Below are positions 5,451 to 53,344 of a DNA stretch of 64,000 nucleotides, one piece after another (position 1 is the stretch's first letter; each line of letters opens with the position of its first letter). A model generated the notes under the pieces. It saw only the letters and a program-made list of their open reading frames with translations. It had not been told where the DNA came from and searched no databases. The stretch comes from Octopus sinensis (lineage: Eukaryota), in the NCBI RefSeq assembly GCF_006345805.1, contig NC_042997.1:183148001-183212000 (forward strand), in the 5' to 3' direction. The translations under genes and the position numbers were made by a program.

Positions 5451-5989
5451 GTGATTTTTATTGCAATGTTTTACTTCATATATTTTATTATAGTGCTAAA
5501 TTGATATTATACTCACACTTTATAAAATAATAAAAATAATAATAAAAGACACAATATAAAACCAAAAACGAAAAATTCAGATGTCACTCTTAGTGACTGA
5601 GAGTGCAGGCAAGCACCTATATTGCTAGAAACAAATCATACACACACATACACAGATGTATATACATAAACGTGTGTGTGTGTGTGTGTGTATACACACA
5701 CACATATATACATATCATTTAACGTTCATTTTTCATGCTGGCATGGGTTAGATGGTTTGACTGGCGTTGTAAGCTGGAGAGCTGTCCCAGACTCCAATCA
5801 TATACACACATGCATGTATACGTAAATACCTCTTTATATATAAGCATTTGTTGAATTTGGCTCACTCAAAATAGACGCCTCTTAAAATTTACTACTCAAT
5901 AAAATGTTATTCATGTAATCTATATTCTTTAAGGACTTGACACTATAATCATGTCTGTTTATTATATATGTGCGTGTATGTATGTATGT

Positions 5990-6180
5990 GTGTGTTTGTC
6001 CCCCAACATCGCTTGACAACCGATGCTGGTGTGTTTACGCCCCCGTAACTTAGCGGTTCGGCAAAAGAGACAGATAGAATAAGTACTAGGCTTACAAAGA
6101 ATAAGTCCTGGGGTCGATTTGCTTGACTAAAGGCGGTGCTCCGACATGGCCGCAGTCAAATGACTGAAACAAGTAAAACA
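5990..6180 (+). mobile_element. 3' half of major SINE family
   Basis: tttgtcccccaacatcgcttgacaaccgatgctgg...gcagtcaaatgactgaaacaagtaaaa, matching copies at 11191 and 11932. Confidence 0.85.
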
Positions 6181-13885: not shown

Positions 13886-15023
13886 CAAGACATGAAAACA
13901 AGAAAGCATCATACTCAGTAACAAAACAGGCAAAGGAATATGTAAGTGAATTCCAAATACTACAAATTCCAGAATTAGACATACTAGAAACAAGCGCAGA
14001 AAAAGCTAAGCACATGAAAACCTGTACTAAAACTGCTGCTTTTGATATTCTGACTGATAAATGGCAAGAAAAACTTCTCAGTGGTAAATACCCAAAGAGA
14101 TCAAATAATGCTGATGTTGACAAAGCCCTTACCCATCAATGGCTAATGGCTTCTCTGGCTTAAAATCTGAAACAGAAGGCTTTATCATAGCAGCCCAAGA
14201 TCAGTGCCTACTTACAAGGCCAACATATTAAAGAATGGCAGCTTCCCAACATGTCATATATGTCAACAATAAAATGAAACCATTGATCATGTCGTCTCTA
14301 TGTGTAGTCTTCTTGTACCTACAGAGTATCTCAACAGGCATGATAGAGCTGCACAATATATTCACTGGGTAATTTGCGAAAACCTGGACTTGCCCCATGA
14401 TAAAAACTGGTGGGAACACAAACCACCTCCAGTGCTTGAAAATGATCACATCTCGCTCCTCTGGAACTTCACCATTCAAACTGACAGAAATATAGATACA
14501 AATATGCCAGACATCATATTGAAAGACTTCAGACAAAAAACATGCCTCCTCATTGATATGACTGTCCCAATCAATATAAACGTATCTGTCAAAACCTACC
14601 AAAAACTGAGCAAGTATAAATATCTTGAAATAGAAATTAACAAAGTGTGGAACCTGAAGACTAAAACAATAGCTGTTATAGGTGCCCTGGGAATGATAGC
14701 AAAAGGGGCTGATTGCTACCTAGCTCAGATACCAGAAAACCCCCAAATGGCAGAAATTCAAAAGATAGTGCTTATGGGAACTGCCCATATCCTAAGCAAG
14801 ATACTTTCTATGTAATCTCAAATTTTAAAACAAACACATAATTTTTTTATGGTTTCTTAAGCATTCTCTAGAACAACACTATGTACAAAAACCAAATATA
14901 ATGGCACCCTAGGCATAACACCAACATGAACTTCTAACTTGTCTTTTGAGGTCTCTGGGTGAGACTTGGAGCCAACTTGTACAAATGTAAAGCAAAAGTC
15001 AAACATAAAATAATAATAATGAT
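13886..15023 (+). mobile_element. 5'-truncated R4/Dong-like non-LTR retrotransposon (zinc knuckle + restriction-like endonuclease), frameshifted, (TAA)n tail
   Basis: C..C...ETIDHVVSMC...YLNRHD...WWEHKP...LWNFTIQTD...PDIIL...LIDMTVP...K..KY motifs. Ends in aataataataat. Confidence 0.88.
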
Positions 15024-20245: not shown

Positions 20246-22385
20246 ACCATATTCTTATAGTTATATTGGCACTTCGTAATTAAAAAAAAATATATATTTT
20301 TGTGTTGTCTGCTTTTATAAATAGTTTTTCTTATAATCTAATGTTTGTTTATTCATATTATGAAAACAATTATTCCTGTAAGTAATTAAGGGCTACTCTA
20401 CTTTTGTTGTAGTCTTTAAAATGGTGAAAGCTCTGGCTATATTTTTCAAATTTATGATATTCTAGTTGAGTTTAACCTAAACATTTTTGAAATTGTAGTT
20501 ATCTGCGAGGTAATATTCTCAATGTGAATCCAAATCAATTTTTTATAAATTGAAAGTAAACTCACAATAAGAACCATTAGCACTAAGTTCTTATATTTTT
20601 TAATAAGTTAAGGGATAGAACTCTGGAATTTGAATTGATGCAAAATAAATGATATGTAGTGAAGAGTGAATTTGATGTATATAGAAATGCTGACAACTCT
20701 GGATGTGGTTCACTCTCTGCTACATGAATTTTGAATCATTTTAAATTCCAGGGTTCTCTTTGCAATTTTCAACAAGAATTGTCTATAATGCTAATATTTC
20801 TACTTCACATAATGGGTTAATTTCATTTTCTTTTTGGCTCACTATATTATGTTAGCCTCAACTACATTTTTTTTTCATGCTGGTGAAAATTCTGCATTCA
20901 ACAAATTGATTTTTGAACAATTAAATTATATATCATAAATGCTTCAGTGATGTTGCAGAATAGTGAATGCTTCAAACTATGTGTAATGGAATTATGCACT
21001 AAATATACTAATACAGCTACTAACAGTATTGTCTCTTTTGTATTCATATCTAATGACTAATATAATGAAAACATAATGAAAACAATATTTATCAGATATG
21101 AAATAGCATGAGTTTTTATTCATACTGTCTTGCTCCTTACATAAGGCATAAAAAAAGACAAAAACTAAAATAAAAAATGCCTCTTCAATTTTCATGAAAT
21201 CTGTTTAATTACATCAGTATTCTACATTGAAAAAGTTTTATACAATTAAAAGCAATTGAAATGTGGAAAATAACTCCATTACATTGTAACTTCTGGCATT
21301 CTCTTTAATAATTAGATTAGCAGTTACTATTAACTACAAAGATAATGGCAATGCATTAAAAATAGACTTAAGCCAATGGATGAAGATGGTCAAGTAGACT
21401 TAAACAATGGATGGAGGTGGTCTATATAGTAAAGCTAATGCAAGATATGGCTGAGATGAATAAAAGGTAGTACTAGTATATAGGCCTTCTTTTTCTGCTG
21501 TGATACCTGTATGAGAAATAATAGGCCCCACTCTAATCCACCAATAACAAATTTATATTCAATGAAAAAACAAAAGGCATCATATTGTCATTGTGTGATC
21601 TTATGGCAGTATGATATATGTGTGAATGATAAGTTCAGATCCGGTTACATTTCAAGGACTCATGATAGTAAGCATTTAAGAAACAAGAACAGAAAACTAA
21701 AACTCTGGAGAAGGACTTGGACGAACATCCTTAATAGTGAACAAATGACATGATTGCACTGGTATACTTGATATGGTCTGTTAAAGCTGATAGACGGAAT
21801 TTGGGGAATAAAAAGATTTTCTCTATAAATAACAGGAAGTATGGTGTGTATGTTAATTATGTGATGATGAATTAAATAGGAAAATGTAAACAGAAGACCA
21901 GCAGTAAGCAAAATTATATTTGTAATTTATTGGACAATAATTTGTGTAATTAAATGAATGTGCAGTATGACCAAAATGAAGGTGTGTATAGAAAATGGTT
22001 GTTAATTACTTGGTGTTGTAAAATAAAACCAATTTTAAGGAGAGCAGAGTAAGCTAATGAAAATGTTGATGCTGTAATGACACTGGAAGCCAATTAAACA
22101 TGTTGTACATGCCCATCTAACTTCTACTATAAGTATAAATACACACTAAGAGGAGAGTTATAATAAATTTAACTAGAAAATAGTTATGAAAATATTTCTA
22201 AATATAACTTATTAAGCCTCAATTTTATTGAGGCTTATTAAAAAGGTTTGCCTAAGATAAGAAATCAAGAGATAAAGCAGTAGTAACAATAAGTGAAAGA
22301 TGAAGCAAAGCAAACTTGCAGAAAAAGACCTAATAAAAGTTAATGTATTAAAATAAGTTGCTTTAATAAAATCACAATTGAATAG

Positions 22386-22388
<3 letters not shown>

Positions 22389-22475
<87 letters not shown>

Positions 22476-22482
22476 ATATATA
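22389..22482. repeat. Long (TA)n microsatellite
   Basis: Directly visible. Many other (TA)/(TG)/(CA) tracts occur in the window. Confidence 0.95.
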
Positions 22483-22871
22483 GTTATTGCTAAAAAGTTT
22501 ATATGTAAATTCAGAAAATAGATTTTCTTTAATTATTTGTATATCACAAAATTTCCTCTTCGTAATATAAAAATAATGACAATTAAAATGCTAATGTATA
22601 AATTTAAGGATACAAATTAACATGATTAAAAACATTTGTTCTTTTATGCGTGAAACTGTAAGATGAGTTCCCTGTAAGGTAGTGAAACAGACATTCGATA
22701 TGAATTTAATATTTTGTTTAACTTATTAAATTAATTGATTGTTTTTAAATTTATTAATTTAAAATAACAATTTAACCAAATTAGTATTCTAATTGAAAGT
22801 AGTATGTTATTTATTTTCACTAAACTGTTTTTAATTTGTTTATAGCCTAACCAGTTTTTCTGTTCTTTCAG

Positions 22872-23804
22872 TTGGGCAGTCAAATAGTGCTCGGATGTCA
22901 TCTACGAAAGTGTCACCTCTTCATGTCAGCCTAAATGCCAACCTTGTGGAGCATAGTGGCTTTTCTGACAATAATTCTGATGGTAATAGTGAATTTGAAG
23001 AAGCTTTAAAAAATATAAAAGCTTTAAATGGTCAAGGCCGATATACTGACACTCCTGAAAATGAAGCTATTGAGAAAAATGTAGATAGCAATTTTGGAAT
23101 AAAACCAGATAAGAAAAGCAGTTCTACTACTAATATAAACAAAAATACAAGTGAATCTCAAAAACAATCTGATGATCAAAATCTAGATGAATCGGTATCA
23201 CAGGAAAACAATAACAGTAACTCTAGCCATATGAACTTATCACCCATTGATACCACTCAAACGAGTCCTTTGTCAGAAAATGATGACAATCCTGAAAATT
23301 TAGATGATGTTAAAAATAATTGTGATAAATCTAAAACATCAAAAAATGAAGCATCTGACAATGAGGAAACAGAAGTAAACTTCAATCATTTAAACTCTTT
23401 GAATGTTTCTTCTGATAAAAAGAATTGTAATGATAATGAAAGCCATTCTGAGAAGAAGAATTTTGTTGGTAATGGAGACTATTCTGGGTCTGATGTTAAA
23501 GAATTTGTATCCTCTTATGGTTTGGATGAAAAAATAAAAGATTCATTCAAATATTTTTCAGAAAAGAACTCAAATTCAGCATTAAGTAAAATGCTTTTAA
23601 AAAAGAAGGATGACAGTAATGTTCAAAATGTAACATCAACAAGTGATTCCCAATCTTCTTCCAAATCAAACAAAACCAGTTCCTCACGTGGAAATTTATT
23701 TGAAAACTTTGGGACTATTGCTTCAACTAATCATAAAGATGATAAGGAAGATGAGAAGATAAAAGGAATTGATGAATATATTTCTAAGAGTAACGGGCAA
23801 GTTG
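22872..23804 (+). CDS. ATF7IP: ATF7IP coding exon 2, large N/S/D/E/K-rich disordered region
   Basis: Acceptor ttctttcag|, 933-nt open frame (ORF 22895..), donor G|gtaagt at 23805. Phase 1-1. Confidence 0.85.
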
Positions 23805-24756
23805 GTAAGTTTACCTCAGTACCACCCTTTTTTTTTTCTTTCTTAGCTATTTTGACATTAGCCCCCATGTACATATTTTTCACTCATGGGTATAAATTGA
23901 TACTAGCATTGTATAAGCCCAATATATACTAACCTAATTTTTTTGTGGTGATCAAGATTTTTTCCATTAGCAAGAAATTAGAATTTAATGCTTAGAACTT
24001 GTGCTAGTTCAGAGAATCTAAGAATACTATAAAATCATCCAGAATATTTGATAGTCATATAGTCTTTTAAGTTCAGACAGAAACAGTTTACAAACATGCG
24101 TATGGATTTTAGCCGTCATTTAAAAACAAAACTAAATGAGATTTCTTTGATATTCCATATATATCTTCATCTTTGAAAATGTAATGCTTGGTGCGAAACT
24201 CTTGTTCAGCTGCCTTTCAGTTTTTACTTGATTTACTTTTAGGTATTTTCATTTTTTCAAATTAACTCATTCATATTTGTAGATTGTTTTATATAAACAG
24301 TTCATAACTATCTTCATCATCTATAAGTACATTGTATTCCTTGTTTGGTTGAATTAATATTTAGAGTTTCATTCAGTTTTTTTTTTTTTATGCTATGACA
24401 TCATTAAGTCTTATGAATAATTAAGAAAGTATTTTAGGTACACTTTTTGTCTTTTATGCCTATTTAGAATATTAAAATTATTGATAAAACAAGCATTTCA
24501 GTTAGTAAAATTATGTTCATGAAACCTAAATACTGGTCTTAAATCCTATCTAAATAATTATTATAATTATTGTTGCTTTAGTGAGAATAAAACTCATGCA
24601 ATGTCCCTAGTCACTTCAATATGGCTGTCCATTTGAATGGACTTTACTGCAATTATTTAAACCCAAGAGGACATCTCTAGCTGGTTAATGATGCACAGCT
24701 GTGTCCAATATATTGTGAGCAGGGAAGTGAATCCCTACCATCCTCTAGCAGTGGGA

Positions 24757-24806
24757 CCAGTAGGCCAACCTGGTTTCAGGCTATTTCTGCCTCTCTTCAG
24801 TACTGG
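24757..24806 (-). ncRNA. Type I hammerhead ribozyme, antisense copy with mutated cleavage triplet (GCC)
   Basis: Minus strand reads CCAGTA-CTGAAGA-GAGGC(AGAAATA)GCCT-GAAA-CCAGGTTG-GCC-TACTGG, with a perfect 6-bp stem I CCAGTA/TACTGG. Confidence 0.75.
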
Positions 24807-25324
24807 ACACCTCATCTGCTAGAGATGGCAATAGCTTGCTTCTGCTTGCAATATATATAAATTCACGCGATAAACAGTTGCTTATTTTGCAACCGGCAAG
24901 AATGCTAGTTCTAAAATCTCTCTGAGAGATCATCGCAGTAGTTGTACTAACAAGTTATGTTTGCAGCCACTTCAACATAGCTGTCTGTTCGAATGGAGGT
25001 AGAAATAGCCCAAAACCAGGCTGGTCTACTGGTCCTTTCATTAGAAAGTGGTAGGAGTTCGCTCCCCTGCTCACACTATATTGAAAGCAGCTGTGCCTTG
25101 TTAACCAACTAGAGATGTCCTCTTGGGATTAAAAAAATTACAGTAAAGTCTGTTCAAATGGACAGCCATGTTGAAGTGGCTATGAACATTACTTGTTAGT
25201 ACAACTACTGTGTTGATCTCTTAGATTTTAAAACTAGCAATTTTGCTTGTTGCAAAAATCAGTGACTGTGTTGCTTGAATTTATGTATGCAGTGAGCTAC
25301 TGCCATCTCTAGCAGACGAAATGT

Positions 25325-25374
25325 CCAGTTCTGAAGAGGAGCAGAAATAGCCTGAAACCAGACTGGTCTGCTGG
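25325..25374 (+). ncRNA. Type I hammerhead ribozyme, catalytic core intact
   Basis: CCAGTT-CTGAAGA-GGAGC(AGAAATA)GCCT-GAAA-CCAGACTG-GTC-TGCTGG. Stem I CCAGU/GCUGG with a U-U closing mismatch, stem II, near-palindromic stem III ACCAG-A-CTGGT. Predicted cleavage after C25368. Confidence 0.8.
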
Positions 25375-28079
25375 TCACATCGCTAGAAGGGCTTTGCTTC
25401 CTTGTTCACAATATATTGGATGCATTGTTAACCAGCTAGCGATGTCCTCTTGGGGTTAAAATCTATTCGAATGGACAGCCATGTCGAAGTGGCTACAAAC
25501 ATTACTTGTTAGTACAACTACAGTGTTGATCTCTTAGAAAGATTTTAGAACTAGCATTTTTGCTTGTTGCAAAACTTATGTACTTTACAACTTAACCCAA
25601 CTTATAAGATTTATTGCCCTTAATTTAGGCTCTATTACATGTTCTTGAAAATGTCAAAGATTCTGTCAGATATAGCTAGATGAAGGATATTCTATGAATT
25701 GTAGAAAGGAATTGTGTGAGAGAGAAGGAGAAAGAGAGCTCTGGGTGTGTGTTTTCAACTTTTTTATAAATCTGATAAATTAAGGAAAATAGTTTTAAAA
25801 TCTTATTTAGTTTCTTAATAGAGCATGTTTTTATTGTATTTTGAAAAAGTAACAGTACAGCCACCACCTTCATCATTGTTTATTTTACATTACTATAAGA
25901 TGTAAATATCGTGTTTTGATTATATAAGGGAGCTTGTCTGTAAGGTGTGCTATACTCAGATTTTCCTTTTTTTTTTGCATTAAATTGTGTTAAACTTGTT
26001 CATCCAAGTTGTTACATTCTTAATTTTCTTGCCGTGTCTCTGCTTCAGTTTGTCTGTGTTATCTCCCTCTGTTTATTTCTTCTGTAACTATTATGTAATC
26101 AACATTTATTTTATGTTTGACAGTTTTATATTCATTTTGCACAAGTGTATTGTAAAATTTATGATTTATATTTTGCATCTAATCAGCAACAATTTATGCT
26201 ACTAAATGTCTGATTTACTTTACAATGAGTACATTATATATATATATAGCACTCTACACTTTATAAGGTGATTAGTAGATTAACATAGACAACTATAAGG
26301 ACAATTCCTTAGTCTTGCTGTTGACATGGCAACCCCTGTTGTACTGGTGTTACAAGAAATTGCAGCCAGAGGATCATGTAAAGTGATTGACCAATAAGAA
26401 TGGCATCCAATTTTGGAAAACTTGTTAAAAATGGAATATAAGAAGTGAGATGTCCCAAAAAGTTTAAGTTTAAAATTTAAAAGGTTGAACATCAAAAGCA
26501 GCATAAATCACTTTTAAAATAAATAAACTCAATTTGATTCATAACTCTTCTTTATTTATAAAATTTTAGTGAATGCACCATGAAAGATTAAAATGAAATA
26601 AATTATATTCAAGAATATTGGAAAGTTCATCTCTACAAAATTTATTACAGAAACATTGTATCTTTTGAATGGTGGTTTAAAATTCCAGATTAAAAATTTA
26701 CTAACATTTTGTTTTTAGATAGATTTGTTTCTACTAGATCCTTCTTCACAGAATCCATTGATTATCTTCAAATTAGAATCTGTGAAATTGAAAATTTTAA
26801 TGTATTGTATTATTATATTTAGTTGGAGTCAATTCATTTTCACTGACTCCGACTCCACATCTGTGATGATGACTATAAAAGTTCTGTCAGTGTAACCTGA
26901 ATAAAGTTAGAGTGGGAAAGCTTGTGGAGTTATTAGTTCTGCTGACAACATAGGGAAATGTTGATACCGCAAAGCTTGGAGAGAAATGAAGCAAGCATGC
27001 TCTATTGGAATGTTAGTATGCATGAAAGATGTGGTAGAGATAAATTTGGAGGATAACCTATAGACAAAAAATTACCAGGAGATTCAAGTGGAAGAAAATG
27101 TGGAAAAGGAAGACTGAGAATGACATTAGTGGAAGTGGTAAAAACTGATATCAGGATGCTGAACCTCACAAAGATGATTAAGGTGGACAATAGTGGTAAG
27201 ATGCTGTGTTGACAAAGATCCATCTAACCCATGCAAACGTAGGAAAATGGACAAAACAACGACTGATGGTGGTGGCAGTGGCAATTCTGCTATTGCTGTT
27301 GCTCAATTTACTTTGGTTGCATTCTTGCTTTCAATTAATGAAATGTGACTATAAGTTTTAGTTTTCTATGTCATTTCCCCACCTATAATGTAAATAGGAA
27401 ATGGTTAGCTCATTTTCAATTACATGCAAAGCAAGATGAATATCAAACAGTTTAAATACATATATTATTCCTAAGAATGTATATATTTTTCTGGTCATTT
27501 ATTTGCTGAAAAAGTTAAAAAATTGTTATTCAAGTTTAATATATGGGAAGTGTCAAATCAAAAGATCAAATCTTAGTATTTCTATTAATATGCCTACTAA
27601 CAGAATAATTAGAATTGACTTTGTTACTAACCAATTACAAATACCAAATTAAAGAAGAGGAATTAACATCCATTTTACCATGCCAGAATGGATTGGACAG
27701 AAAGTTATTGCCTGCACTAACACATGCACATGTGCACCAAACATTTGTATTCAGAAGGTGAAAATTTCAGGTTTGAATGGATTCTCAAGTTATAGCAAAT
27801 TAGATATCATCAAGAATTTGAGAAAATTTCTGTACATGTAAGGGCATAGAAAGATTAATACTGAATCATCGTAATTGTTTTTTGTCTTCTTTTTCCATAC
27901 TTTTATGAGTTGGATACAATTCCTGTTATTTGTTAGGGTTAAAGTTATACACTAAATAACCAATATATACAAAACCACTGTCATTGCCAACATACTATCT
28001 TCAAGATAGCATGTTAGCACTAGTATTTGATATATGCATGTGTGTATATACCCCCCCCCCCCCCACACACAGGCACACA

Positions 28080-28680
28080 TTGATCTAGAGATTGTTTTTG
28101 ACAAGGTACCTTTCACTGTAATTTGTTTTCTCTAAGGAAAGTAGTAGATGAAAAGCTCATGAAGGCTGTACAAGCTATGTACAAAGGGGCAGTCAGCAAG
28201 GTGAGATCTATCAATGAGTTTAGTTTGTCGGTGTGGGTATATCAGAGCTCATTTTTCAGCCCATTCCTATTTATTATAGCACTCCATGCTAGAACAGAGG
28301 AATTTTAGAAGCTGATGACTTGGCACTTATTGCAAAATCGGTAGAAGAACTGAAGCTGAAGTTCCAGACACAGAAGCAAAATCTGAAAATGAAAAATGTT
28401 AAAGTAAATTTAGGGAAAATGAAAGTTTTAGTTAATATTAAGGATATAGAACCCTTATAGAATCAGGGAAAGGTTTGTGCTCTTCCAACAGAAAAGGAGT
28501 TGGCAAAAAGAGATTACAGCTGCATGAGCAAGTACTGAAAGGTACCTGTGGATGAGAGAGATTGCAGAAGACTTGGTATGAGATGGTGAAAAATGATCTG
28601 AAGATGTTACATCGGATGAAGGAGATGAGAGAAGATTGTGTCATCTGGCAATTAGTAGTGCTACAGAAGACCCAGTCTCA
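28080..28680 (+). mobile_element. Degraded RTE reverse-transcriptase fragment
   Basis: FDKV...SLRK...AVQAMY...V...Q.S..SPFLFII-like remnants with stops. Confidence 0.6.
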
Positions 28681-28774
28681 TGCACAAATATAGTGCATAC
28701 ATCCCTCTGCACATTTTCTTCTTTCATTCGTTCTATACCCTTATGGTGGAACATGAGGGTATAGAACGGATGAA

Positions 28775-29890
28775 ATATAATACAAAAAAAAAAAAAAACC
28801 TAATGAGTATATCTGAAAGTAAACTCATGGTATCCATTTGCACATCACGAAATAATACTTAACGGACATAACCATTATACCAGCAGGGTATATACTATAC
28901 TTCCTTAATTATCTCCAACTTTAGTTAACACTAAATTAATTAAATATGAAGGAACTGTATGTGTTTCAGTATTGGAACATTATAATATATATACATACAC
29001 ACATCTATTCTCCTAACTGGTGTGCCTATTCTGCACACTCTCATCTGCCAATCATTTCTTTTACTCACCATGATATGCTTCCCATAACTGAGAGTAGGAA
29101 CAGGAGGTACTTGATTTGTGTATATTGAATATCTCCTGTCCCCATACCAATGCCACCTATAACCTGTTATTACTCTTTCCTCCAGAATCATGATGCTTGT
29201 GTGAGGAAGGTTTGCATTCTGACAGCCTTTATCCAGCCTTCCTGATTCTCTTGGATGCACCATTCTACCCATCCGTATATAATGTGGAGAAAAATTCCAC
29301 CTCCTCCAACTCAGCATCATTCCTCCTTCCCACTCTGACTCCCTCTTACAAACCCATCAGTACTTTTACCTTTCCCTCCTGTTACTGTCTTCACACATTT
29401 TATCCTAACTGAATGATATGGAGTAACACTGCATCTCCTACTCAACTCTCTCTACCACCCTATCATTCTGTTATTAACCCTAGCAAATGGGCCAATGTGT
29501 GTTGTCATGTTATTTTTATATTTATCTTGAAATGTACAAGTATCTAATAAAAGTCAATTTAGGCTTTGGGATTAATAGATATGCGGGTATTCTATTTCAG
29601 ATAATACAAAAAACCTAATGAGTATATCTGAAAGTAAACTCATGGTATTCATTTGCACATCATGAAATAATACTTAAAGGACATAACCATTATACCAGCA
29701 GGGTATATACTATACTTCCTTAATTATTTCTAGTTAACACTAAATTAATTAAATATGAAGGAACTACATTGTTTCAGTATTGGAAGATTATAATATATAT
29801 ACATACACACAATTGTATACATATATAAATGTATATATGTAATCATCAGATTTACCATTGTTCCAACACATCTTCAGGTTCTTTTTCAAA
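28775..29890 (-). mobile_element. Penelope-like direct repeat pair (~28775-29002 and ~29601-29811) with minimal hammerhead
   Basis: Two clearly similar ~210-225-bp direct copies. The second extends into a complete minus-strand hammerhead motif. Confidence 0.55.
29757..29885 (-). ncRNA. Minimal type I hammerhead motif with microsatellite-expanded loop II
   Basis: Minus strand reads GAAC-CTGAAGA-TGTGTTGGAA...TTCCAATACT-GAAAC-AAT-GTA-GTTC. Stem I GAAC/GTTC, 9-bp stem II, 2-bp stem III. Confidence 0.55.
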
Positions 29891-30664
29891 ATATTATAAA
29901 TCTAATTTTACATTCCTTTAAAAGGCAATAATATTTAAGCATTAAAAATTAAATAGAAAATTATACTTTGTAATATTAAGAATTAAAATTTATAAATTAT
30001 ACATTATAAATATGAATTAGTATATATATATCAACCTCTTAAAGTCAAGTATATAATGTCAAATACAAATTATAAGATATAAAATTATACTTCAGAATAA
30101 AAATGTCTGTTTAAATGTGAAATATAACAAGAAAAATTCAACTACATATCTTCCTTTTTTGCTAGTGCCAGGATTAGTTTTCAAAATGGCGATTAGAGGA
30201 AGATAGGGAACTATGGGAGCTTATAGGTGATTAGTACCAAGTGCGCGGGTGGGGGGGGGGAGTAGTTACACTATGCATAGTTTAAATTTAAACTATCCTC
30301 TATTACTATCTTCAATTTACTTATGTGAGGAGATATTTATTATATAATTTTAGTAATACTTAATTCATTTATTTATTTAAATTATTTATATATTTATATA
30401 GTCTATTCAAGTGCTGTAGAAATAAAATTGTGTGGATATTTTGATTCTGGGGTGGGGATTCAGTATTTCATTTTGTTGAAGATAAAATTACTTTGGTGTC
30501 TACATTTACTCCACATTCATCATATGTGTTTAATAATTCATCTCTAGACTGTAGTAGTTTAATAAATTTTGTTAGGCATAATAAACACTTTTTATTCACA
30601 ATATTATAAGAGTGGGCTCTACCTATTATACTCCAATTAAGAGTGTACTCTCTTTTTCTAGATT

Positions 30665-31575
30665 TTTATTCCCATATGACTGCTGAGGACATGTGTAAGC
30701 TTGCAAGAAATGAAGCTAGTATGCTCCGCTGGATGTGTAATGTCAGTGTGCATACACAAGAGTGTAAGCACCCTGAGAGAAAAGTTGGACATAAGCATCA
30801 GATGTGGTGTGCAAGAGAGACTGCTGGTATGGTAATGTGTTGCATATGGATGAGGACAGATTTGTGAAAAAGTGTTACAGCCTAACAGTGGGGGGGGGGG
30901 GGTGTGGAAGAGGTAAAATCAAGAAGACCTGGGATGTGGTTGTGAAGCATGACCTTCGAACATTGGGTCTCACTGAGGCAGTGACAAGTAACCAAGACCT
31001 TTGGAGATATGCTGTGCTTGAGAATACCTGGTAAGCCAAGTGAGACCATAACTGGCCTATGCCAGTGTAGCATTACCAGCCCATTTAAGAGTACCAGTCA
31101 ATCATTGGGCTATAAACTATGCTTGAGAAGACCTGTTGAGTCAAGTGAAATCATTGTCGTGGCCAATGCCAGTCCCATCAGACTGGCTCCTGTGCCAGTG
31201 GCATGTAAAATGCACCATTTGAGCATGGTCAATGCCAGTGCCGCCTGGCTGGTTCTGTTCAAGTAGCATGTAAAAAGCACCATTTGAGTGTGGTCATTGC
31301 CTGTGCCGCCTGACTGGCTCCCTTGCTGGTGGCATGTAAAAAGCACCATTCGAGCGTTGGTTGATGCTAGTATTGCCTGACTGGCCCTTATGGTGGTGGC
31401 ATGTAGCACCCACTACACTCTTGGAGTGGTTGGTGTTAGGAGGGGCATCCAGTTGTAGAAACCTTGCCAGATCAGATTGGAGCTTGGTGCAGCTTTTTGG
31501 CTTGCCAGTCCTCAGTCAAGCTATTCAACTCATGCCAGCATGGAAAGCAGATGTTAAATTATGATGATGATGCTT
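30665..31575 (+). mobile_element. RTE LINE 3' end with ~65-75-bp tandem repeats in the 3' UTR
   Basis: LARNEASMLRWMCNV...GRGK.KKTW..VVKHDLRTLGLTE...LWR, repeated gtggcatgtaaaaagcaccatt units, (GAT)n tail. Confidence 0.85.
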
Positions 31576-32699
31576 TGAGCATTGTTGAGGAAGGGTCTTA
31601 TTTTGAATAAGGGAACATGATTTTCTTAATTTTCTTCCTTGCATACTGGTGCAAGTTCAAAAACCTTGTTTGTGTCCATAATACTGGAAAACATACTGGT
31701 CACCAAACAGTTCGTCCATGTTCCAGAAGTTTGTAGTTATGGTCAGCTTCTTAATGTCGTTTATAATGTTTAAAATGCCCCAATTTCCTCCAGGCATGTG
31801 AGAAACTGTAAACTATTGCCCCCCTCCCCCTCTTTGTTTTATAATTCTGTGTTACATTTTGTTTCTGCAGTTACTGTTGGTAATTATTGAAGATCAAAAA
31901 ATATAAAGGAATAGCCAATTGCTTGCAACTATTGGAAAGACTGTGATTGGGTCCTATCTCTTTTGAAAAAACTTAAAAGTACTTTCTAAGTACTTACTTC
32001 ATACTGTTTCTTGTAGCACTCATCACTTTCATTATCATTACAGAGCTATTGGAGTTACTGCTTTTGCAATTAGAAATTGAAATATCTGATTCTCCATTAT
32101 GCACATTGTTATACTTGTTGCATGTTTCATATATATATATATTCTTTTGAAAATCCTTCACTTCAAATTCTGAATCACTACTGGTGAATGTGAAACTGGT
32201 TTCCATTTTTTCAGTCATAAAAGACAAAAAGCATTTTGGGTGGTTTCAGGTGGGTTGATAATGAATAGTTTCTATCAGCTCTTTTCTCTTCAGCTTAGCT
32301 TTTTGAATTCAAGATTAGGCAGAGACTCTGTTTTTTATTGCATAAAAAAAAGAGAGACCCGTCACAAAAATTTAAAATTAAAGTCAAAAGAATATTTCTG
32401 AAGTTTAAAGGTTATTTAGTATTTGATGCTTTATCTTTTAATAATCACAGGTGGCTTATTGTATTTCAAAACTGTCATATTGAACTTATAAAAATATGAA
32501 GGAATTATCTCGTTCAGTATCTTCAACAACTACCACCAATACTGCTAATTTCTCAGAATCTGAAAATTGGGCTGGTGGGGGAAAATAATTCTAGGTTAGC
32601 CTTCCCTACATAGAATATCACAACATTAATTCGAGAATTGTAAATGAAGTAATGCAAATATGCATCCTCTCATCCACTATTTTGTACTTAACACTTACT

Positions 32700-34850
32700 T
32701 GATCTTTTTACAAATCCTTACAACATTAGCACAGCCTCATATTACAATTGACATCACAGTTACCCTACCTTTTCTATAGTCATTACTACATAATGACTTC
32801 AACACAGCATCAACCCTATTCAAAGAGACTAGTAGCCTGTACAAAATCCACCTCTTCCAACATCAAATGTAACAAACTGCCACATGTATTCACCATACTG
32901 CTATCTTCATCAGTAGCAAGCATCTACCTTTTCTATGTTTTCATGGAATAGGTGGGTCTTCCTTAGTATAGCTTTGTGATTATCATTTATTTCATAGTAT
33001 TCAACCCTTGAGGTCAGCTTTCAGCCTTGGTCTTCTACGTTTGCATGATCTTTCCACTTTAATTGCATGGAATTTGTTATAAGTATCAAATGTTAAAACC
33101 AATGTAGCATGCTACATGTGATACACCTTATACCTAATTTTTTTCCTCAGCTCAGTTGTAATCTGTTGTTCAAGCATTCTAATGTTATATAGCCAGCAAT
33201 GAATGCTTGCTTCATTTTTTTTCAGCCTTCACAATACCTCAACATGAAATGCCCATGTTTCACTCTCACACAAAATCAAACATCATACATAAGCATCATC
33301 TATGCAATCTACTCCTCACTTAGAGAGTGAGCCCTAAGTCCTGGGGTCAATTTGTTCAACCAAAAGCATTCAAGACAGTGCTCCAGCATGGCTGCAGTCA
33401 AATGACTGAAACAACTAAGAGAATGAAAGGATAGATATCAAACATTCAAACGTAACCACTTCTTAGATATTATTGTCTTCTTTACTGTTAACTAAAATTT
33501 TGTCTTTACTTCGGGGCCTTTCAATTTTAGGATTTGTTTCCACATTTGGAATTTCTTTTGTAATTCCTTGACAAAGAGCTGTCAAAATTAGGTCATTGGT
33601 ATGCAGAAGTTGCTATGGACAGCTGTCTTAACATAAGGACTGGAAATCTGTAATAAACCGGAGGAAATTGAGAACAGCCTGATGGACACCTTGCTTGTTA
33701 AATGCCTTGCTAAACTCATTATTAACTCACCTTGCTGACAGTATTTTTATACATGGCTTGAATAGCTTTTACACACTATTCATCTACACCTAGTTTTCTT
33801 AATGATGATGAGACTATACTGCATGGTATTCTGTAGTTGTATCACTGGGAAGAGGGCATTGATGATACTCACATTCAGACATTAACCCAAACTGCATCTC
33901 GTCTAAATTAATTCACTTTCTAGACATACTTGAATACTTTGTTTCTTTATGACATGGTCCATCAATTAAAAACGTTTATAGATACTCCTTTCTAGAGATT
34001 TTTGTTTGTTTTTGCTTATGTAGCAGTTGATGATGATACTACTATGGCACCCACTTAACAGCAAAATTCCTTCAGATAACATACTTACTGTCCTGCACTT
34101 AGGAAAAACATTGAATATTCAAGGCTTTGATCATAGACCTAATAAACTGGAGTAGACCTGGTACAAATCAACAATAACCCTGATTGACTATGCAAGTGAC
34201 AACTGCATGTCCTACTTTGCCAGACCGTTTCAGTACATTAGCAACTACTTCTGATAGTCTAATCCTTAATAGTACTTTCAGCTATATAACTGTCAACTTC
34301 AATAGCTAGTTCCTCTATTGAGTCTAGCTGGAACCATGCTCCATCGTCACAAATCTTGTCTATGGCTCATAGCAGATTGTCTTGTAGAAATCCCAGTTAT
34401 TCTTTATGCTGTCATTATCATCATATGCAGGTACATCTTCTTAACATCAGCTAGTATTTCTATGAGCCTATGTTTGGCTGGAGGGTCGTTCAGCTTCCAT
34501 ACTGTCCTTCCATACTCTAGTGTCTCAGAATATGGCTAGCTCTTGCCTTGAGGTTATTGATCACTAGTCTATGTTAAATTGTCCCTCCTTCACGTAGGAA
34601 GGACTCACAACTGGTTACTGTCCTATTTCTTGAGTGTGAAATCTATCTGCTATACATGTTCATCTGATTAGTAGATTTATACAGTGGCTGGTTGTTTGCC
34701 TGAAGTTATTGTTGTAATGGGTTAAGTCATTTGTGTCACTGAGCTGCAGAAGCCTTGATTCCTCCTCATTCTTCATTCTTCATACCATAGAGTCTCATAT
34801 TTACTAGAAATAATCATCATGGTGTCACTTAATGAGTCTGTTTGTTACAT
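32700..34850 (-). mobile_element. Highly degraded LINE-like sequence with embedded SINE fragment (33337-33425)
   Basis: Strand-skewed, more GC-balanced composition without an intact ORF; weak RTE-like remnants. Confidence 0.3.
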
Positions 34851-34963
34851 TAATAGCCAAAAGAGTTGTTTCACGCAAATGGCACCCATGCTGGTGACAC
34901 ATAAAAGCACCCATTACACTCTCAGAGTTGTTGGCGTTAGGAAGGGCATCCAGTTGTAGAAAT

Positions 34964-35335
34964 GTTATTATTATTATCATTATTTAGGTCACTGCCTGGA
35001 ATCAAACTCGGAATCTTGGGGTTAGTAGCCCGCACTCTTAACCACTACGCATACGGTGTTATGGTTACCACTACGCCATAGGCTCATGGGCACATGGCAT
35101 AGTGGTTAAGAGCGTGGTCCACTACCCCAAGATTCTGAGTTGGATTCCAAGCAGTGACCTAAATAGTAATAATAATATCGAAAAATACCTTAGGAATGAG
35201 AACCCAGGTTCAAAATTTCCCCAAAACACCTGATGAAGGCTGGAGGGTACATCAGTTGTTGTGTTAACAGCAAACAAGATGAGGACAAATATCCATCAAA
35301 TGTAAATAATTCCTCATCTCTTAAATATAAAACAG
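34964..35335. mobile_element. Head-to-head inverted pair of tRNA-derived SINE heads; right copy continues into a CTGATGA-containing tail
   Basis: 34981-35050 is the reverse complement of 35097-35165. A box tggcatagtggttaag, B-box-like gagttggattcc, CTGATGA at 35230. Confidence 0.75.
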
Positions 35336-35601
35336 AAAGGGATTTGTTTGATTTGTTCGGTAAGTGAAGTTTCTAGTACTGACTTGTTCTAGTTTCTATG
35401 TACCACAGTTTCATTTGCTAAAAAATAGGTACTACTTACCAAGCTTTTTTTTTGTATATATGTTTCATTAATATTAAGTTTTTTGTGTTTGAAATCCATT
35501 ATTTCTATGAAGTCTGTTGCAAAAATTATTATATGTATTAATGTTATGTAAGAATTTTTTAGTTACCTCTGATTATAGGGTCGGTTTCGTTTTATTTTCA
35601 G

Positions 35602-38211: not shown

Positions 38212-38421
38212 GAATTAGCTGAGATTGTAAAAAGAGAAGTTATGAATATTTTAAACAGTAAAGAAACCACTTTAGAAAGTCTTCAAGTTAAAATTGATGA
38301 ATTACAAGCTACAAATGAATATTGGAAAACACAAGCAAAGGAGTTACATAAAGAAGTTCTTGAACTTACTGTGTTGCAACAAAAACAGGAAAAACGAAAA
38401 GCTGCTGCTATTGCCCTTAAG
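38212..38421 (+). CDS. ATF7IP: ATF7IP coding exon 4, coiled coil (probable SETDB1-binding domain 1)
   Basis: Poly-T tract + tag| acceptor. Heptad-rich ELAEIVKREV...LQVKIDELQATNEYWKTQAKELHKEVLELTVLQQKQEKRK. Donor AAG|gtaata. Phase 0-0. Confidence 0.88.
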
Positions 38422-39254
38422 GTAATAAATATTGTATTTGTTTTTGCTTCACCTGTTGTTTAAAGTGTGTGTTTTTTTTTTAAAATTTTATCTTCTTTTT
38501 TTTTTTTTTACTAAAAACATGATCTGAACATTTTTTGTTACTTTGAATTTTGTGCCTTTTAGCAAATATATACTTGGATATTCACAATTACGAAGCAAAC
38601 ATTTCAGGAAGATTTAAGCTGTAAGAAATAATGTTCATAGCTCTAATATGAATTTAAATACCTCTAGTGTCAATAATTATCAGTATATTGTTGTAGACAC
38701 AGTTGAGCTTGTGATTTTTATATATATATTTTTTTTTTTTTTTTCATTTTTTTAAATAATAGTCAGCAGGGGAAGGCAGTGCTCTTTTTTCTAGGGTCTC
38801 TGAAGGACTGGTAGGAGAAAAGGTGGAAGGTACCCTTAGATCTGTGACCTGGCCCCTATGCTAGCAGCCAAGAACATTCATGGGCCATTTATTGGTGTGA
38901 AACCTAGCAGTGGATTAAGTCTACTATTCAAGAGCAGGAATGATCCCTCTGACAGACTCCACATAGTTTCTGTTTACCTATTTTCTTTCTGAAGGCATTG
39001 GTCAATCTAAGGCCTTGATAGTGATGCCATGCAATGGGATTGAACCTGAAACCATGTAATAACTTAATCTTATGACCATGCCTATATATTTTTCTCACCT
39101 ACAATATCATCTTTTTTCTTAATAAATAAATCTCATTCAATTTTAATAAAATAATTTAGAATATTTTATATTTTGTTAAAATGTTTTTGTTGTTATTTTT
39201 TCATGTTAAGGTTTTAGAATGTAATTATTAATTATATGGATTTTTCTCTTTCAG

Positions 39255-39299
39255 GCAATTACAGCAAGACATGTTGCTGTTCAGGTTGATGAAGGAAAG
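39255..39299 (+). CDS. ATF7IP: ATF7IP coding exon 5, 45-nt mini-exon (AITARHVAVQVDEGK)
   Basis: Acceptor tttctctttcag|, donor AAG|gtaaaa, open in phase 0-0. Too short for the ORF track. Confidence 0.72.
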
Positions 39300-47899: not shown

Positions 47900-48560
47900 G
47901 TTATCAGATAACAAAGTATCGCTGTCTATTACTCCGAAGAAGAAGAAGAAAAAAAAAAGAAGCAATAATATTCCTGTGCCCCAGGAAGGAAGAACAGATG
48001 CATTATTAAGAAAACAGTTGAGAATGTGTGAAGCTCTGAAATGCCAAAATGAAATAAATTTAACGATAGCAGAGCTTAGGGAATAAACCTCATTAAGATA
48101 TCAAAAATGAAATAGCATATGAAAGAAATTAAAGGAGGGCAGATATGAGAAAAAGACAGCCACAAAGATGTTAACATGAAATTGAAGAAGAATGGAATAT
48201 GAGATCTCTTAATGCACAAGCTACAGAAATATAGGAAGCAAATTCATAATGTAGGAGCAAACATAAATATCTATTTAAAAATAAATATAGTTTTCTATAT
48301 TTTAGATTCATTTTATTATCATTTTCAACACATTTAACTAAGATAAACATTTCATAAATATTTCCCATCATTACAGATGGCATGGGTACACTAGTATAAC
48401 ATAATTGTTTAGTGAACTGTACCTTGAAAATTAAAATGAAAATAATTTTCTTTACTTCATATTTTGCTTCTGGTATTTAATTATATTTAGAGTAATAGTC
48501 TTAGTTTCAAATATTGTTTTGATAAAATCAAATAATTATTTCTGTATATATTTTATATAC
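47900..48560 (+). pseudogene. Decayed tandem copy of the STPR unit (period ~715 bp) with Helitron-like 3' end
   Basis: Aligns by eye to 48620-49275 but contains stops and frameshifts. Hairpin CCATC-attaca-GATGG (48365-48380) then CTAG|T at 48391-48395. Confidence 0.65.
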
Positions 48561-48579
48561 TTCTAATTCAACTGTTGAG

Positions 48580-49005
48580 GAGACGCCTCTTCAAAGGAAA
48601 AGAAGATTAGCAAGGGAACGACAAAGAAGGTGGCGCTCAACCTTATCTCAAGAACAATTAGAAGCAAGAAGAGAAAAAGGTAGAAAAAGATATTCCAGTG
48701 CTTCACAAGAAAGAATTAATGCAATAAGACAGCAAGCAAGAAAGCGTGAAGCTATGAAACGCCAAAATGAAACTGAAGAAGAGGGAAATTTAAGGCGGGC
48801 AAAGCTGAGGAAATGGGCATCACAGAGAATTCGAAAAGAAACTGTGGAAGAAAGAAATTTAAGGAGATCAAAAATGAAAGAAAGACAATCACAAAGAATT
48901 CAACAAGAAACTGAAGAAGAGCGGAATAGAAGAAGATCTCTTAAAGCACAAGCTATGAGAAATAGAAGAAACAGTCAAAGTTGTAATGTAAGAGTAAACC
49001 TGTAA
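48580..49005 (+). CDS. Intronic ORF of 23-aa STPR-type repeats (Helitron-derived?), possible alternative terminal exon
   Basis: Frame open 48526-49005. Repeats ETEEEGNLRRAKLRKWASQRIRK / ETVEERNLRRSKMKERQSQRIQQ / ETEEERNRRRSLKAQAMRNRRNS are each 23 aa. AATAAA at 49025 and 49058. Confidence 0.5.
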   Translation, partial: ETPLQRKRRLARERQRRWRSTLSQEQLEARREKGRKRYSSASQERINAIRQQARKREAMKRQNETEEEGNLRRAKLRKWASQRIRKETVEERNLRRSKMKERQSQRIQQETEEERNRRRSLKAQAMRNRRNSQSCNVRVNL

Positions 49006-52460: not shown

Positions 52461-52663
52461 AATTTGATGTTTTAAATTTGCATTCAGCTAGAATTTTTCT
52501 TTTATATAAACTATACTGAAATGCCATTTTTCTTGTGATTATTTTAGATTGATTTCTTAAATTTAAGTGGTATTTAAATGTTAAACAGCCTTGTGGGGCA
52601 TGACTTGTTTTTGAAAATATTATATCTAATTTTAATTTTCCTCTTTTTTTCTTGTTTATTTAG

Positions 52664-52779
52664 GCATTGTATTATCTTGGAATATGGCTTTAAATGAAAA
52701 TCATGCTGAAATTTCAAATTATCAACTCTATGCTTATCAAGAAGGAAGTGCCCCACCTAGCACTTCCTTATGGAAAAAG
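52664..52779 (+). CDS. ATF7IP: ATF7IP coding exon 9, FN3 domain N-half (GIVLSWNM...YQLYAYQEGSAPPSTSLWKK)
   Basis: Acceptor tttatttag|, donor AAG|gtttgt, recognisable FN3 strands. Phase 1-0. Confidence 0.95.
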
Positions 52780-53182
52780 GTTTGTAAAAACAAGCTTTTA
52801 GAATTGCTTTTTTGCCTAGTTAATTTATAAATCTTCAAGAAATAAAAGTATGATACTCCTTTGTTACACATTAAAGTTGTTTGCAATTATGTTCCTGTAA
52901 ACCCAGAATGTGCTTTAGGGTAAAACGTCTACAATAACAATACACAGTCAAATTATGGTAAATTTTTATTGTATTTAGAAAGCAGTTTTATTGGCAAATT
53001 CTAAAAAGGATGTTTTCTGTACTTTGAATTTGCTTTTGGTATTCTGTTTTTCTTCTCACACATTTCTGAGTTTCCACATACAATGGTAATCTCTATAAGA
53101 GCCAAACCACAGCACCTCTTTAAAAAAAATAATGTAATTTTTTTTTCCTTTTTTAACTCAATGAATGTTTTGTTTATTTCAG

Positions 53183-53344
53183 GTTGGAGACATTAAGGCT
53201 CTACCTCTTCCGATGGCTTGTACATTAACTCAATTCCATGAAGGAAACAAATATCATTTTGCTGTTCGAGCTGTAGATTCACATGGCCGTGTAGGGCCCT
53301 TCAGTGATCCTAGTACCATAAACCTTGGAGTTGGAAACAAATGA
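53183..53344 (+). CDS. ATF7IP: ATF7IP last coding exon, FN3 C-half ([18 protein letters not shown]...GNK*)
   Basis: Acceptor ttatttcag|, family signature [14 protein letters not shown], stop TGA 53342-53344. Confidence 0.96.

Follow-up and report, generated by a model that had tools for sequence, protein, structure and literature searches.

How does a hammerhead ribozyme sequence come to lie, more than once and in both orientations, within an intron of an octopus gene, and could it still act there? The question is raised by a non-coding repeat at positions 24596-25574 of a 64,000-nt stretch of the Octopus sinensis genome (assembly GCF_006345805.1, contig NC_042997.1, positions 183,148,001 to 183,212,000; the whole stretch is hereafter called the window). 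An earlier note, made from the letters only, had described it as a retrozyme-like array of a 342-nt hammerhead monomer, repeated about 2.8 times inside intron 2 of ATF7IP and belonging to a class thought to use Penelope machinery. The answer to which our analysis leads, and which we hold with considerable confidence, is that the locus is a decayed copy of an old hammerhead repeat without open reading frames (ORFs), of the type of the non-LTR retrozymes (LTR, long terminal repeat), likely inserted in one event by a Penelope-like enzyme acting in trans.

The repeat, its family and its insertion ends

The repeat differs from its surroundings in base composition (GC 38-42%, against 23-31% in the flanks), and its longest ATG-initiated ORFs comprise 44 and 50 aa. 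Inverted repeats of 70-146 nt connect 24595-24997 with 24991-25574, and self-alignment resolves the whole into one minus-strand and one plus-strand arm (Table 1). Consensus positions are numbered here from m1, directly after the ribozyme cleavage site, along a family unit of 351 nt. The left arm corresponds to 393 consensus positions at 87% identity to the family consensus, and its outer end falls on the first of two fixed 3′ sites described below; the right arm corresponds to 613 positions at 84%, its outer end lying 9 nt beyond the second site (25565, m222). Both arms together amount to 1006 consensus positions, or 2.87 units, so that the earlier note was right about a non-coding monomer present some 2.8 times, and also about the 342 nt that separate the GTC sites, here the plus-strand triplets at 25024-26 and 25366-68. 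However, the first ~400 nt, one third of the total, lie on the minus strand, and the monomers do not form a tandem array. The Tandem Repeats Finder listing does not include the element, neither flank is a microsatellite, and the locus carries no insert of a long interspersed nuclear element (LINE). One contig of the DNA run X17 (24901-25077) spans the junction between the arms with no differences, and single contigs in the DNA runs X17 and X18 span each outer junction, although this material may come from the sample of the assembly itself; run X20 also contains the left junction, with 11 differences in 268 nt. No empty allele occurs among the contig joints shown for the locus (183 further joints lie outside those shown). 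The locus is an old, decayed and likely inactive copy made of two divergent arms, and not a head-to-tail array.

Furthermore, the repeat is not single-copy. A search of the genome DNA returned 1569 first-look candidates, and the 40 that were scored yielded 91 matches, on many chromosomes. The exact 35-nt core was found at 8 places and a gapped core gave 33 matches, with 0 in both reversed controls; one of these 33 (L054) looks unrelated to the family. Identity of the family arms to the consensus ranges from 72 to 94% (median 84%), CpG positions being changed in 31% of cases and other non-core positions in 9% (1203/12907), and the family is old. The unit, which is free of ORFs, has a GC content below 50% and shows no LTR structure (a primer-binding site and a polypurine tract were not searched for separately), is circularly permuted, so that arms run across the unit boundary. 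An arm exceeds one unit in 24 of 53 family loci, the longest reaching 2.1 units, and two intact cores one unit apart, judged by core letters, are present in 3 of 54.

A sister family with a 353-nt unit (2429 candidates, 27 loci mapped) is 56-61% identical to this one over the whole unit, its copies standing mostly at 88-97% to their own consensus and its arms extending up to 3.5 units. The sister copies (L149-L177) are younger and carry a palindromic stem III and an AUA cleavage triplet. Further diverged relatives are found in L105, L095, L182, L144, L129 and L191; those at L105:5440-5770, L095:42-442, L182:5550-5771 and L191:888-1450 have their own hammerhead variants, and the relative in L105 is bordered by TA repeats on both sides.

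The family shares with the metazoan non-LTR retrozymes, as these are described in PMC7229834, an ORF-less unit within 150-450 bp, a type I hammerhead, a GC content below 50%, multi-unit copies and a strongly self-paired predicted circle; nearest in size is a mussel family of 350-390 bp. It differs from them in that its insertions are short, have two arms and end at two fixed 3′ sites, where theirs are long head-to-tail arrays, and in being decayed and known here from sequence alone. The words "inverted", "octopus" and "cephalopod" have 0 occurrences in the main text of that paper. At the level of sequence the family has every feature of a non-LTR retrozyme, cleavage and circles being putative. 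The proposed membership in a retrozyme family is therefore borne out as regards a multi-copy, ORF-less, permuted unit of ~350 nt with a type I hammerhead, but not as regards the locus itself, which is inverted and whose ribozymes are not intact.

In a set of 69 arms of at least 80 nt, from 54 distinct loci, the 5′ ends are variable and the 3′ ends concentrate at two sites about 55 nt apart, with 26/69 at m161-172 and 15/69 at m214-225, mostly just before GTT within a common RCTT/GTT motif. These 41 arms compare with a mean of 13 and a maximum of 19 in 500 uniform simulations, and the same two sites receive 13/37 and 10/37 arms in loci that were not chosen by motif. A microsatellite lies within 25 nt after 25 of the 45 fixed ends, versus 2 of the 24 other ends and a background of 11%. 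Head-to-head pairs of arms were seen in 10 of 53 loci, seven of these ten having one end at each site, and no convergent pair is listed. Arms of the sister family end at the two homologous sites and are of the same types, and the locus in the window fits as well, with its left end at m164-168 and its right end 9 nt past m222.

It has been described that Penelope insertions consist of a partial tandem and an inverted 5′-truncated copy, with a tail at one end (PMC8557442), and that a lizard Penelope element uses in vitro two internal start sites of its reverse transcriptase (RT), which define the tail (PMC11167929). Hammerhead cleavage was unnecessary for insertion in that system (PMC11167929), so that a circular template is possible and not required, since a multimeric transcript would give the same arms. 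The likeness of our family to Penelope-like elements thus includes partial tandems, the inverted 5′-truncated arm, the one-end tail and the two RT starts (PMC8557442; PMC11167929), and also AT-rich or microsatellite targets, a hammerhead near the 3′ end, a palindromic helix III and an extra nucleotide before stem II (PMC8557442; PMC11167929; PMC4209133). The differences are the lack of an ORF, a tail of ~55 nt and not 30-40, and a hammerhead of canonical size with an extended stem I where that of Penelope-like elements is of minimal type. By analogy, the enzyme would be of the Penelope class, and the suggestion of Penelope machinery finds support in the two fixed 3′ ends, the head-to-head arms and, at the family level, the ends adjoining microsatellites.

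In the mechanism that we envisage, a Penelope RT/endonuclease would nick AT-rich DNA, and, on an RNA template that is multimeric or circular, reverse transcription would begin at two internal sites, which lie ~168 and ~222 nt beyond the point of ribozyme cleavage, with one start per target strand. The ancestral hammerhead would have cut multimers into units of ~350 nt, perhaps in a dimeric form through its near-palindromic stem III. The genome holds 5029 GIY-YIG candidates, and intact Penelope-type ORFs (RVT_1 and GIY-YIG, 775-781 aa) are present. In vertebrates, retrozymes have been proposed to be non-autonomous Penelope derivatives mobilised by Penelope elements (bioRxiv 10.64898/2026.07.22.740005); the evidence presented there is co-occurrence and homology to the pseudo-LTR (pLTR), while here it is the insertion footprint, with no homologous pLTR found. 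No mollusc appears among the groups listed in the text of that preprint.

Families with intact RT and GIY-YIG ORFs of this size lie at L101-L104, L105 and L193. The L101 family has an upstream frame of 479 aa and a hammerhead within an identical terminal repeat of 566 nt, and the L105 family bears a variant hammerhead core after its ORF. Relatives of the repeat near L105, L182 and L095 were considered as partner pLTRs and rejected as separate insertions; those near L191 and L085 were judged separate by position and strand only. In addition, the older subfamily copies L040, L056 and L060 have an ATG at the start of stem II, which may be due to chance; the ORF of the lizard Penelope element starts where stem II begins (PMC11167929).

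Table 1. Coordinates in the window of the repeat, its hammerheads and the host gene
Feature	Position	Strand	Remarks
Left arm	24596..24997	-	5′-truncated, inverted; from m123 to ~m164-168 of the next unit; 1.1 units
Right arm	24996..25574	+	5′-truncated partial tandem; from m321 through one full unit to m231; 1.7 units
Head-to-head junction of the 5′ ends of both arms	24991..24997		2-nt overlap, within a short palindrome
Sole complete unit from cleavage site to cleavage site	25027..25368	+	342 nt, against 351 nt in the family consensus
Hammerhead copy A with extended stem I	24735..24830	-	core 24800-24763; antisense to the host gene
Hammerhead half B	24996..25032	+	begins inside stem II; GUC 25024-25026 and 3′ strand of stem I
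Hammerhead copy C	25301..25396	+	core 25331-25368, GUC 25366-25368; sense in the pre-mRNA
Host exon upstream of the intron	22872..23804	+
Host intron holding the element	23805..35600	+	GT..AG; spliced in 4/4 RNA-like contig sets
Frames with two host exons, fn3_4 (PF16794)	52636..53341	+	E 2.9e-11 and 4.8e-19

Hammerheads at the locus and across families

The hammerhead motif that was claimed earlier for the same position of each monomer is not everywhere complete at this locus. In copy A the cleavage triplet is GCC instead of GUC (U16.1 to C); half B has lost CUGANGA and carries AAAA in place of GAAA; copy C keeps its core letters, but a U-U closes the base of its stem I, stem II contains an A-C mismatch, and the hammerhead fold lies 5.7 kcal/mol above the local minimum. 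Furthermore, the plus-strand RNA of the locus is predicted to form one arm-to-arm hairpin of -530 kcal/mol (0 of 20 shuffles are as low), inside which copy C would be paired with the left arm. The circular fold of the unit at 25027-25368 has a z of -1.0, compared with -9.1 for the consensus, its self-pairing having been lost. Two consecutive units with complete hammerheads, by which Li et al. (bioRxiv 10.64898/2026.07.22.740005) recognise active copies, are absent. According to these models the three ribozymes of the locus would be dead or masked, none being intact and free; given this, and the inverted two-arm form, it is implausible that a 342-nt circle should arise from this locus. The element would rather be a passenger, giving a long double-stranded hairpin in the pre-mRNA.

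The family consensus presents a different picture: CUGAAGA, GAAA and GUC are all in place, stem II has an additional nucleotide at its base, and no stem position is unpaired, with a near-palindromic stem III of 4 bp and a stem I of 6 bp that has a long distal extension. The consensus circle is predicted to fold at -137 kcal/mol. Across 49 copies the hammerhead pairing holds in 87% of cells, against 29-42% for slid structures. Between families, stem I changes its letters and keeps its pairing (this family, CCAGTA/TGCTGG; sister family, TCTGTG/CACAGA; L105 relative, CACGCG/CGTGTG), and each of the three has a fully or nearly palindromic stem III, with different letters. To judge by these alignments, the related families retain the hammerhead through compensatory changes in stems I and III. 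Between the two sister consensus units, 26 pairs of the whole circle are kept through any change (null mean 18, maximum 29).

A LINE that targets the repeat

In 9 of 54 family loci the repeat begins at m287-289, behind a common A-rich 3′ end of a LINE. Starting from the LINE, 24 of its 30 best copies pass directly into a match to the hammerhead-family profile and 4 more into the same motif as recognised by eye (28/30), the remaining two being one copy without an end and one that is different; the query was taken from a copy adjoining this family, and the 30 copies thus favour its subfamily. LINE 3′ ends at m287 are represented by L118-L147, L198-L217 and L107-L117. The inserts lie in this family, in the sister family and in one further relative, always at the 5′ arm of stem I, and are bordered by duplications of ~15-20 nt at L125, L201, L202, L205 and L217, those at L205 and L217 measuring 5.0 kb; at L117 the upstream repeat is present with no duplication. 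The LINE encodes RVT_1 and zf-RVT, together with a putative endonuclease piece that has no Pfam match, and ends in its own AATAAA/A-rich tail. It may belong to the Tx1 clade, its domain matches being RVT_1 and zf-RVT only. Target-specific LINEs of that clade (Tx1L in Tx1D, Keno in U2, Kibi and Koshi; PMC4494074) likewise occupy one site in another repeat, and the duplications of 15-20 nt and the RVT_1 and zf-RVT domains agree; unlike them, the present LINE has as its target the 5′ arm of a hammerhead stem I, which is common to several diverged families.

When 30 LINE loci were read over ~9 kb upstream, the repeat was found to adjoin the LINE 5′ end in 5, to lie 1.6 kb away in 1 and to be absent from the adjoining sequence in 24; the four loci among them that bear duplications keep the LINE 5′ end or are full-length. 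Three loci flagged by a loose motif (L204, L214 and L114) were rejected, there being no upstream repeat match. The pattern suggests that most of the 5′-truncated LINE copies would have been re-exported from the tail of the repeat by the Penelope machinery. Two points detract from this: microsatellite 5′ flanks accompany few LINE copies only (L210, L211 and L215), and the LINE 5′ boundaries are BLAST estimates. As an alternative to re-export, the copies that have no upstream repeat may have arisen by deletion at insertion or by later rearrangement.

A chain of three tiers of parasites, to which we give somewhat better than an even chance, could nevertheless be drawn from these observations. A Penelope enzyme would copy the ribozyme RNA from two fixed sites in its tail; a LINE lineage would have specialised on one site of stem I in at least three diverged retrozyme families, the core and the tail staying behind it; and the Penelope enzyme would then copy the 3′ part of the LINE to new sites as a passenger of that tail. 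Such a chain would account for the upstream repeat and the duplication at LINE copies that retain their 5′ end, and for the lack of both at most 5′-truncated ones. If the chain is true, any RNA could be mobilised by a Penelope enzyme when it lies upstream of the tail, which would act as a portable signal.

Some of these copies present further particularities. At L202 (~5983-5996 in LINE orientation) the LINE 5′ end holds a short piece resembling the target of this family, although the copy has landed in the sister family, as though some target of a previous landing had been co-transcribed with it. L117:541-2429, L201 and L202 are derivatives with internal deletions, in which the LINE retains its 5′ end and 3′ part. 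Searches of the literature brought up no paper on a retrozyme from cephalopods, on a LINE that targets such an element or on tail-driven re-export, repeat databases and supplements lying outside this scope. The words ribozyme, hammerhead and retrozyme do not occur in the text of a paper on Octopus vulgaris repeats (PMC13282606), and the family may be listed under another name in Repbase or Dfam.

Alternative readings and the host gene

Several results weigh against a retrozyme-type family moved by Penelope enzymes. A hammerhead match in Rfam, proposed earlier as a check, was not obtained at E<=1 in 22000-28000 of the window nor in 5 better family loci, which matched models of miRNA type, most strongly over microsatellites. 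The consensus hammerhead fold lies 3.2 kcal/mol above the minimum, with a stem III probability near zero in the monomer ensemble, although a weak stem III in the monomer fits the dimer-dependent metazoan hammerheads (PMC4209133). Covariation of the stems, another of the proposed checks, is found between the sister families only: within the family it does not exceed that of the shuffles, of which 60 in 500 attain the observed value (49 rows, namely 45 of 47 full-length matches, two internally deleted ones having been dropped, and 4 partial ones, with one structure pair on a gap column), as is expected if the copies decay from one master. Even between the sister consensus units, there are 12 two-sided changes over the whole circle, where the null gives 9.6 on average and reaches the observed number in 413 of 2000 cases. 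Core positions outside CpG are changed less than others (23/407), for which neutral decay alone is not a clear explanation; base composition or some selection may be involved. The arms, of at most 2.1 units, fall short of the long coral or axolotl arrays. Finally, no terminal repeat matching the unit was found in the 58 Penelope loci examined and, with no matching pLTR, it is from the footprints only that we infer a Penelope partner.

This last point bears on the possibility that the copies are 5′-truncated pLTR fragments of an autonomous Penelope-like element. Their insertion footprint is indeed that of Penelope elements, and the search for a partner covered the best 150 of the 5029 GIY-YIG candidates, which were scored, and the 58 loci just mentioned. 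Nevertheless, where the tail ends, the arms continue directly with the hammerhead of the next unit and no ORF intervenes (in 24 of 53 family loci, and over as many as 3.5 units in the sister family), an RT and GIY-YIG ORF between repeats was not found in the family, remnants of Penelope proteins adjoin 3 of 54 loci in the family and 0 of 27 in the sister family, and no remnant was seen running into the unit as an ORF does into a pLTR (base by base at L003 only); we consider this origin improbable. Still less credit can be given to mobilisation by the neighbouring LINE, with the inversion arising by twin priming of the L1 type, for which speaks the LINE 3′ end found directly 5′ of the hammerhead in 9 of 54 loci. 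The LINE's own AATAAA/A-rich tail and the 15-20-nt duplications inside the repeat identify it as the insert, the repeat has no poly(A) end, and both outer arm ends fall on the two fixed sites, unlike in twin priming, where the outer end of the inverted arm adjoins the 5′ start of the other arm.

Two further readings concern the ribozyme motif itself. That copy C would function as an intronic ribozyme, recruited for the regulation of the ATF7IP-like host gene, could be argued from its sense orientation, its intact core letters and GUC, and the left junction in X20, whose 11 differences in 268 nt speak for an old and retained insertion; we hold it to be very unlikely in view of the U-U in stem I, the A-C in stem II and the unfavourable hammerhead fold, of the upstream antisense arm predicted to pair over copy C, and of arms whose identity of 84-87% to the consensus resembles the family median. 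A satellite or duplication of local origin, in which a hammerhead-like motif stands by chance, would agree with the lack of an Rfam match, yet the dispersal of copies over many chromosomes, the 33 gapped-core matches against 0 in the reversed control and the compensatory stems across families leave it a practically negligible probability. The insertion of an ORF-less hammerhead repeat by a Penelope-like enzyme in trans is the reading with which we proceed.

Regarding the host, four RNA-like contig sets join 23804 to 35601 and continue to exons at 38213 and 41204. Downstream frames carry the fn3_4 domain, which we take to be associated with ATF7IP, and from the splicing across 23804/35601 together with these frames it follows that the element is intronic in a plus-strand ATF7IP-like gene. 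Searches of PDB and Atlas did not name the gene, giving the fn3_4 cluster only, at 0.84. Transcript contigs extend 62-200 nt upstream of the exon that begins at 22872, which makes the intron number at least 2 if that stretch is spliced on; the placement in an intron of an fn3_4 gene is therefore upheld, and the number 2 is plausible and not fixed. Depth over the element in the four contig sets is low and mixed, coming partly from other copies, and speaks neither for nor against expression; among the data sets listed as containing its sequence there is no RNA run. A 45-nt host exon at 39253-39297 is joined in 4/4 contig sets, and between host exons an ORF of 159 aa with charged repeats (48526-49005) has no Pfam match at E 0.1. 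Upstream, a 180-aa frame at 14273-14815, with no significant Pfam match, looks like the C-terminal region of a non-LTR retrotransposon.

The locus itself is likely inert, and at most would form a long inverted-repeat duplex in the ATF7IP-like pre-mRNA. The value of the finding lies in the family, with its clear Penelope footprint and its site-specific hyperparasite. The enzyme that moves retrozymes in animals has been proposed and not shown, as presented in PMC7229834 and bioRxiv 10.64898/2026.07.22.740005, and the insertion ends give to this question a specific and testable answer, namely two internal starts and a two-arm product, as for the lizard Penelope element in vitro. The younger sister family and the intact Penelope-type ORFs of the same genome supply the reagents. 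In turn, a LINE that is specific for one site and apparently re-exported would mean a new class of target, and a route by which one class of retrotransposon could carry another.

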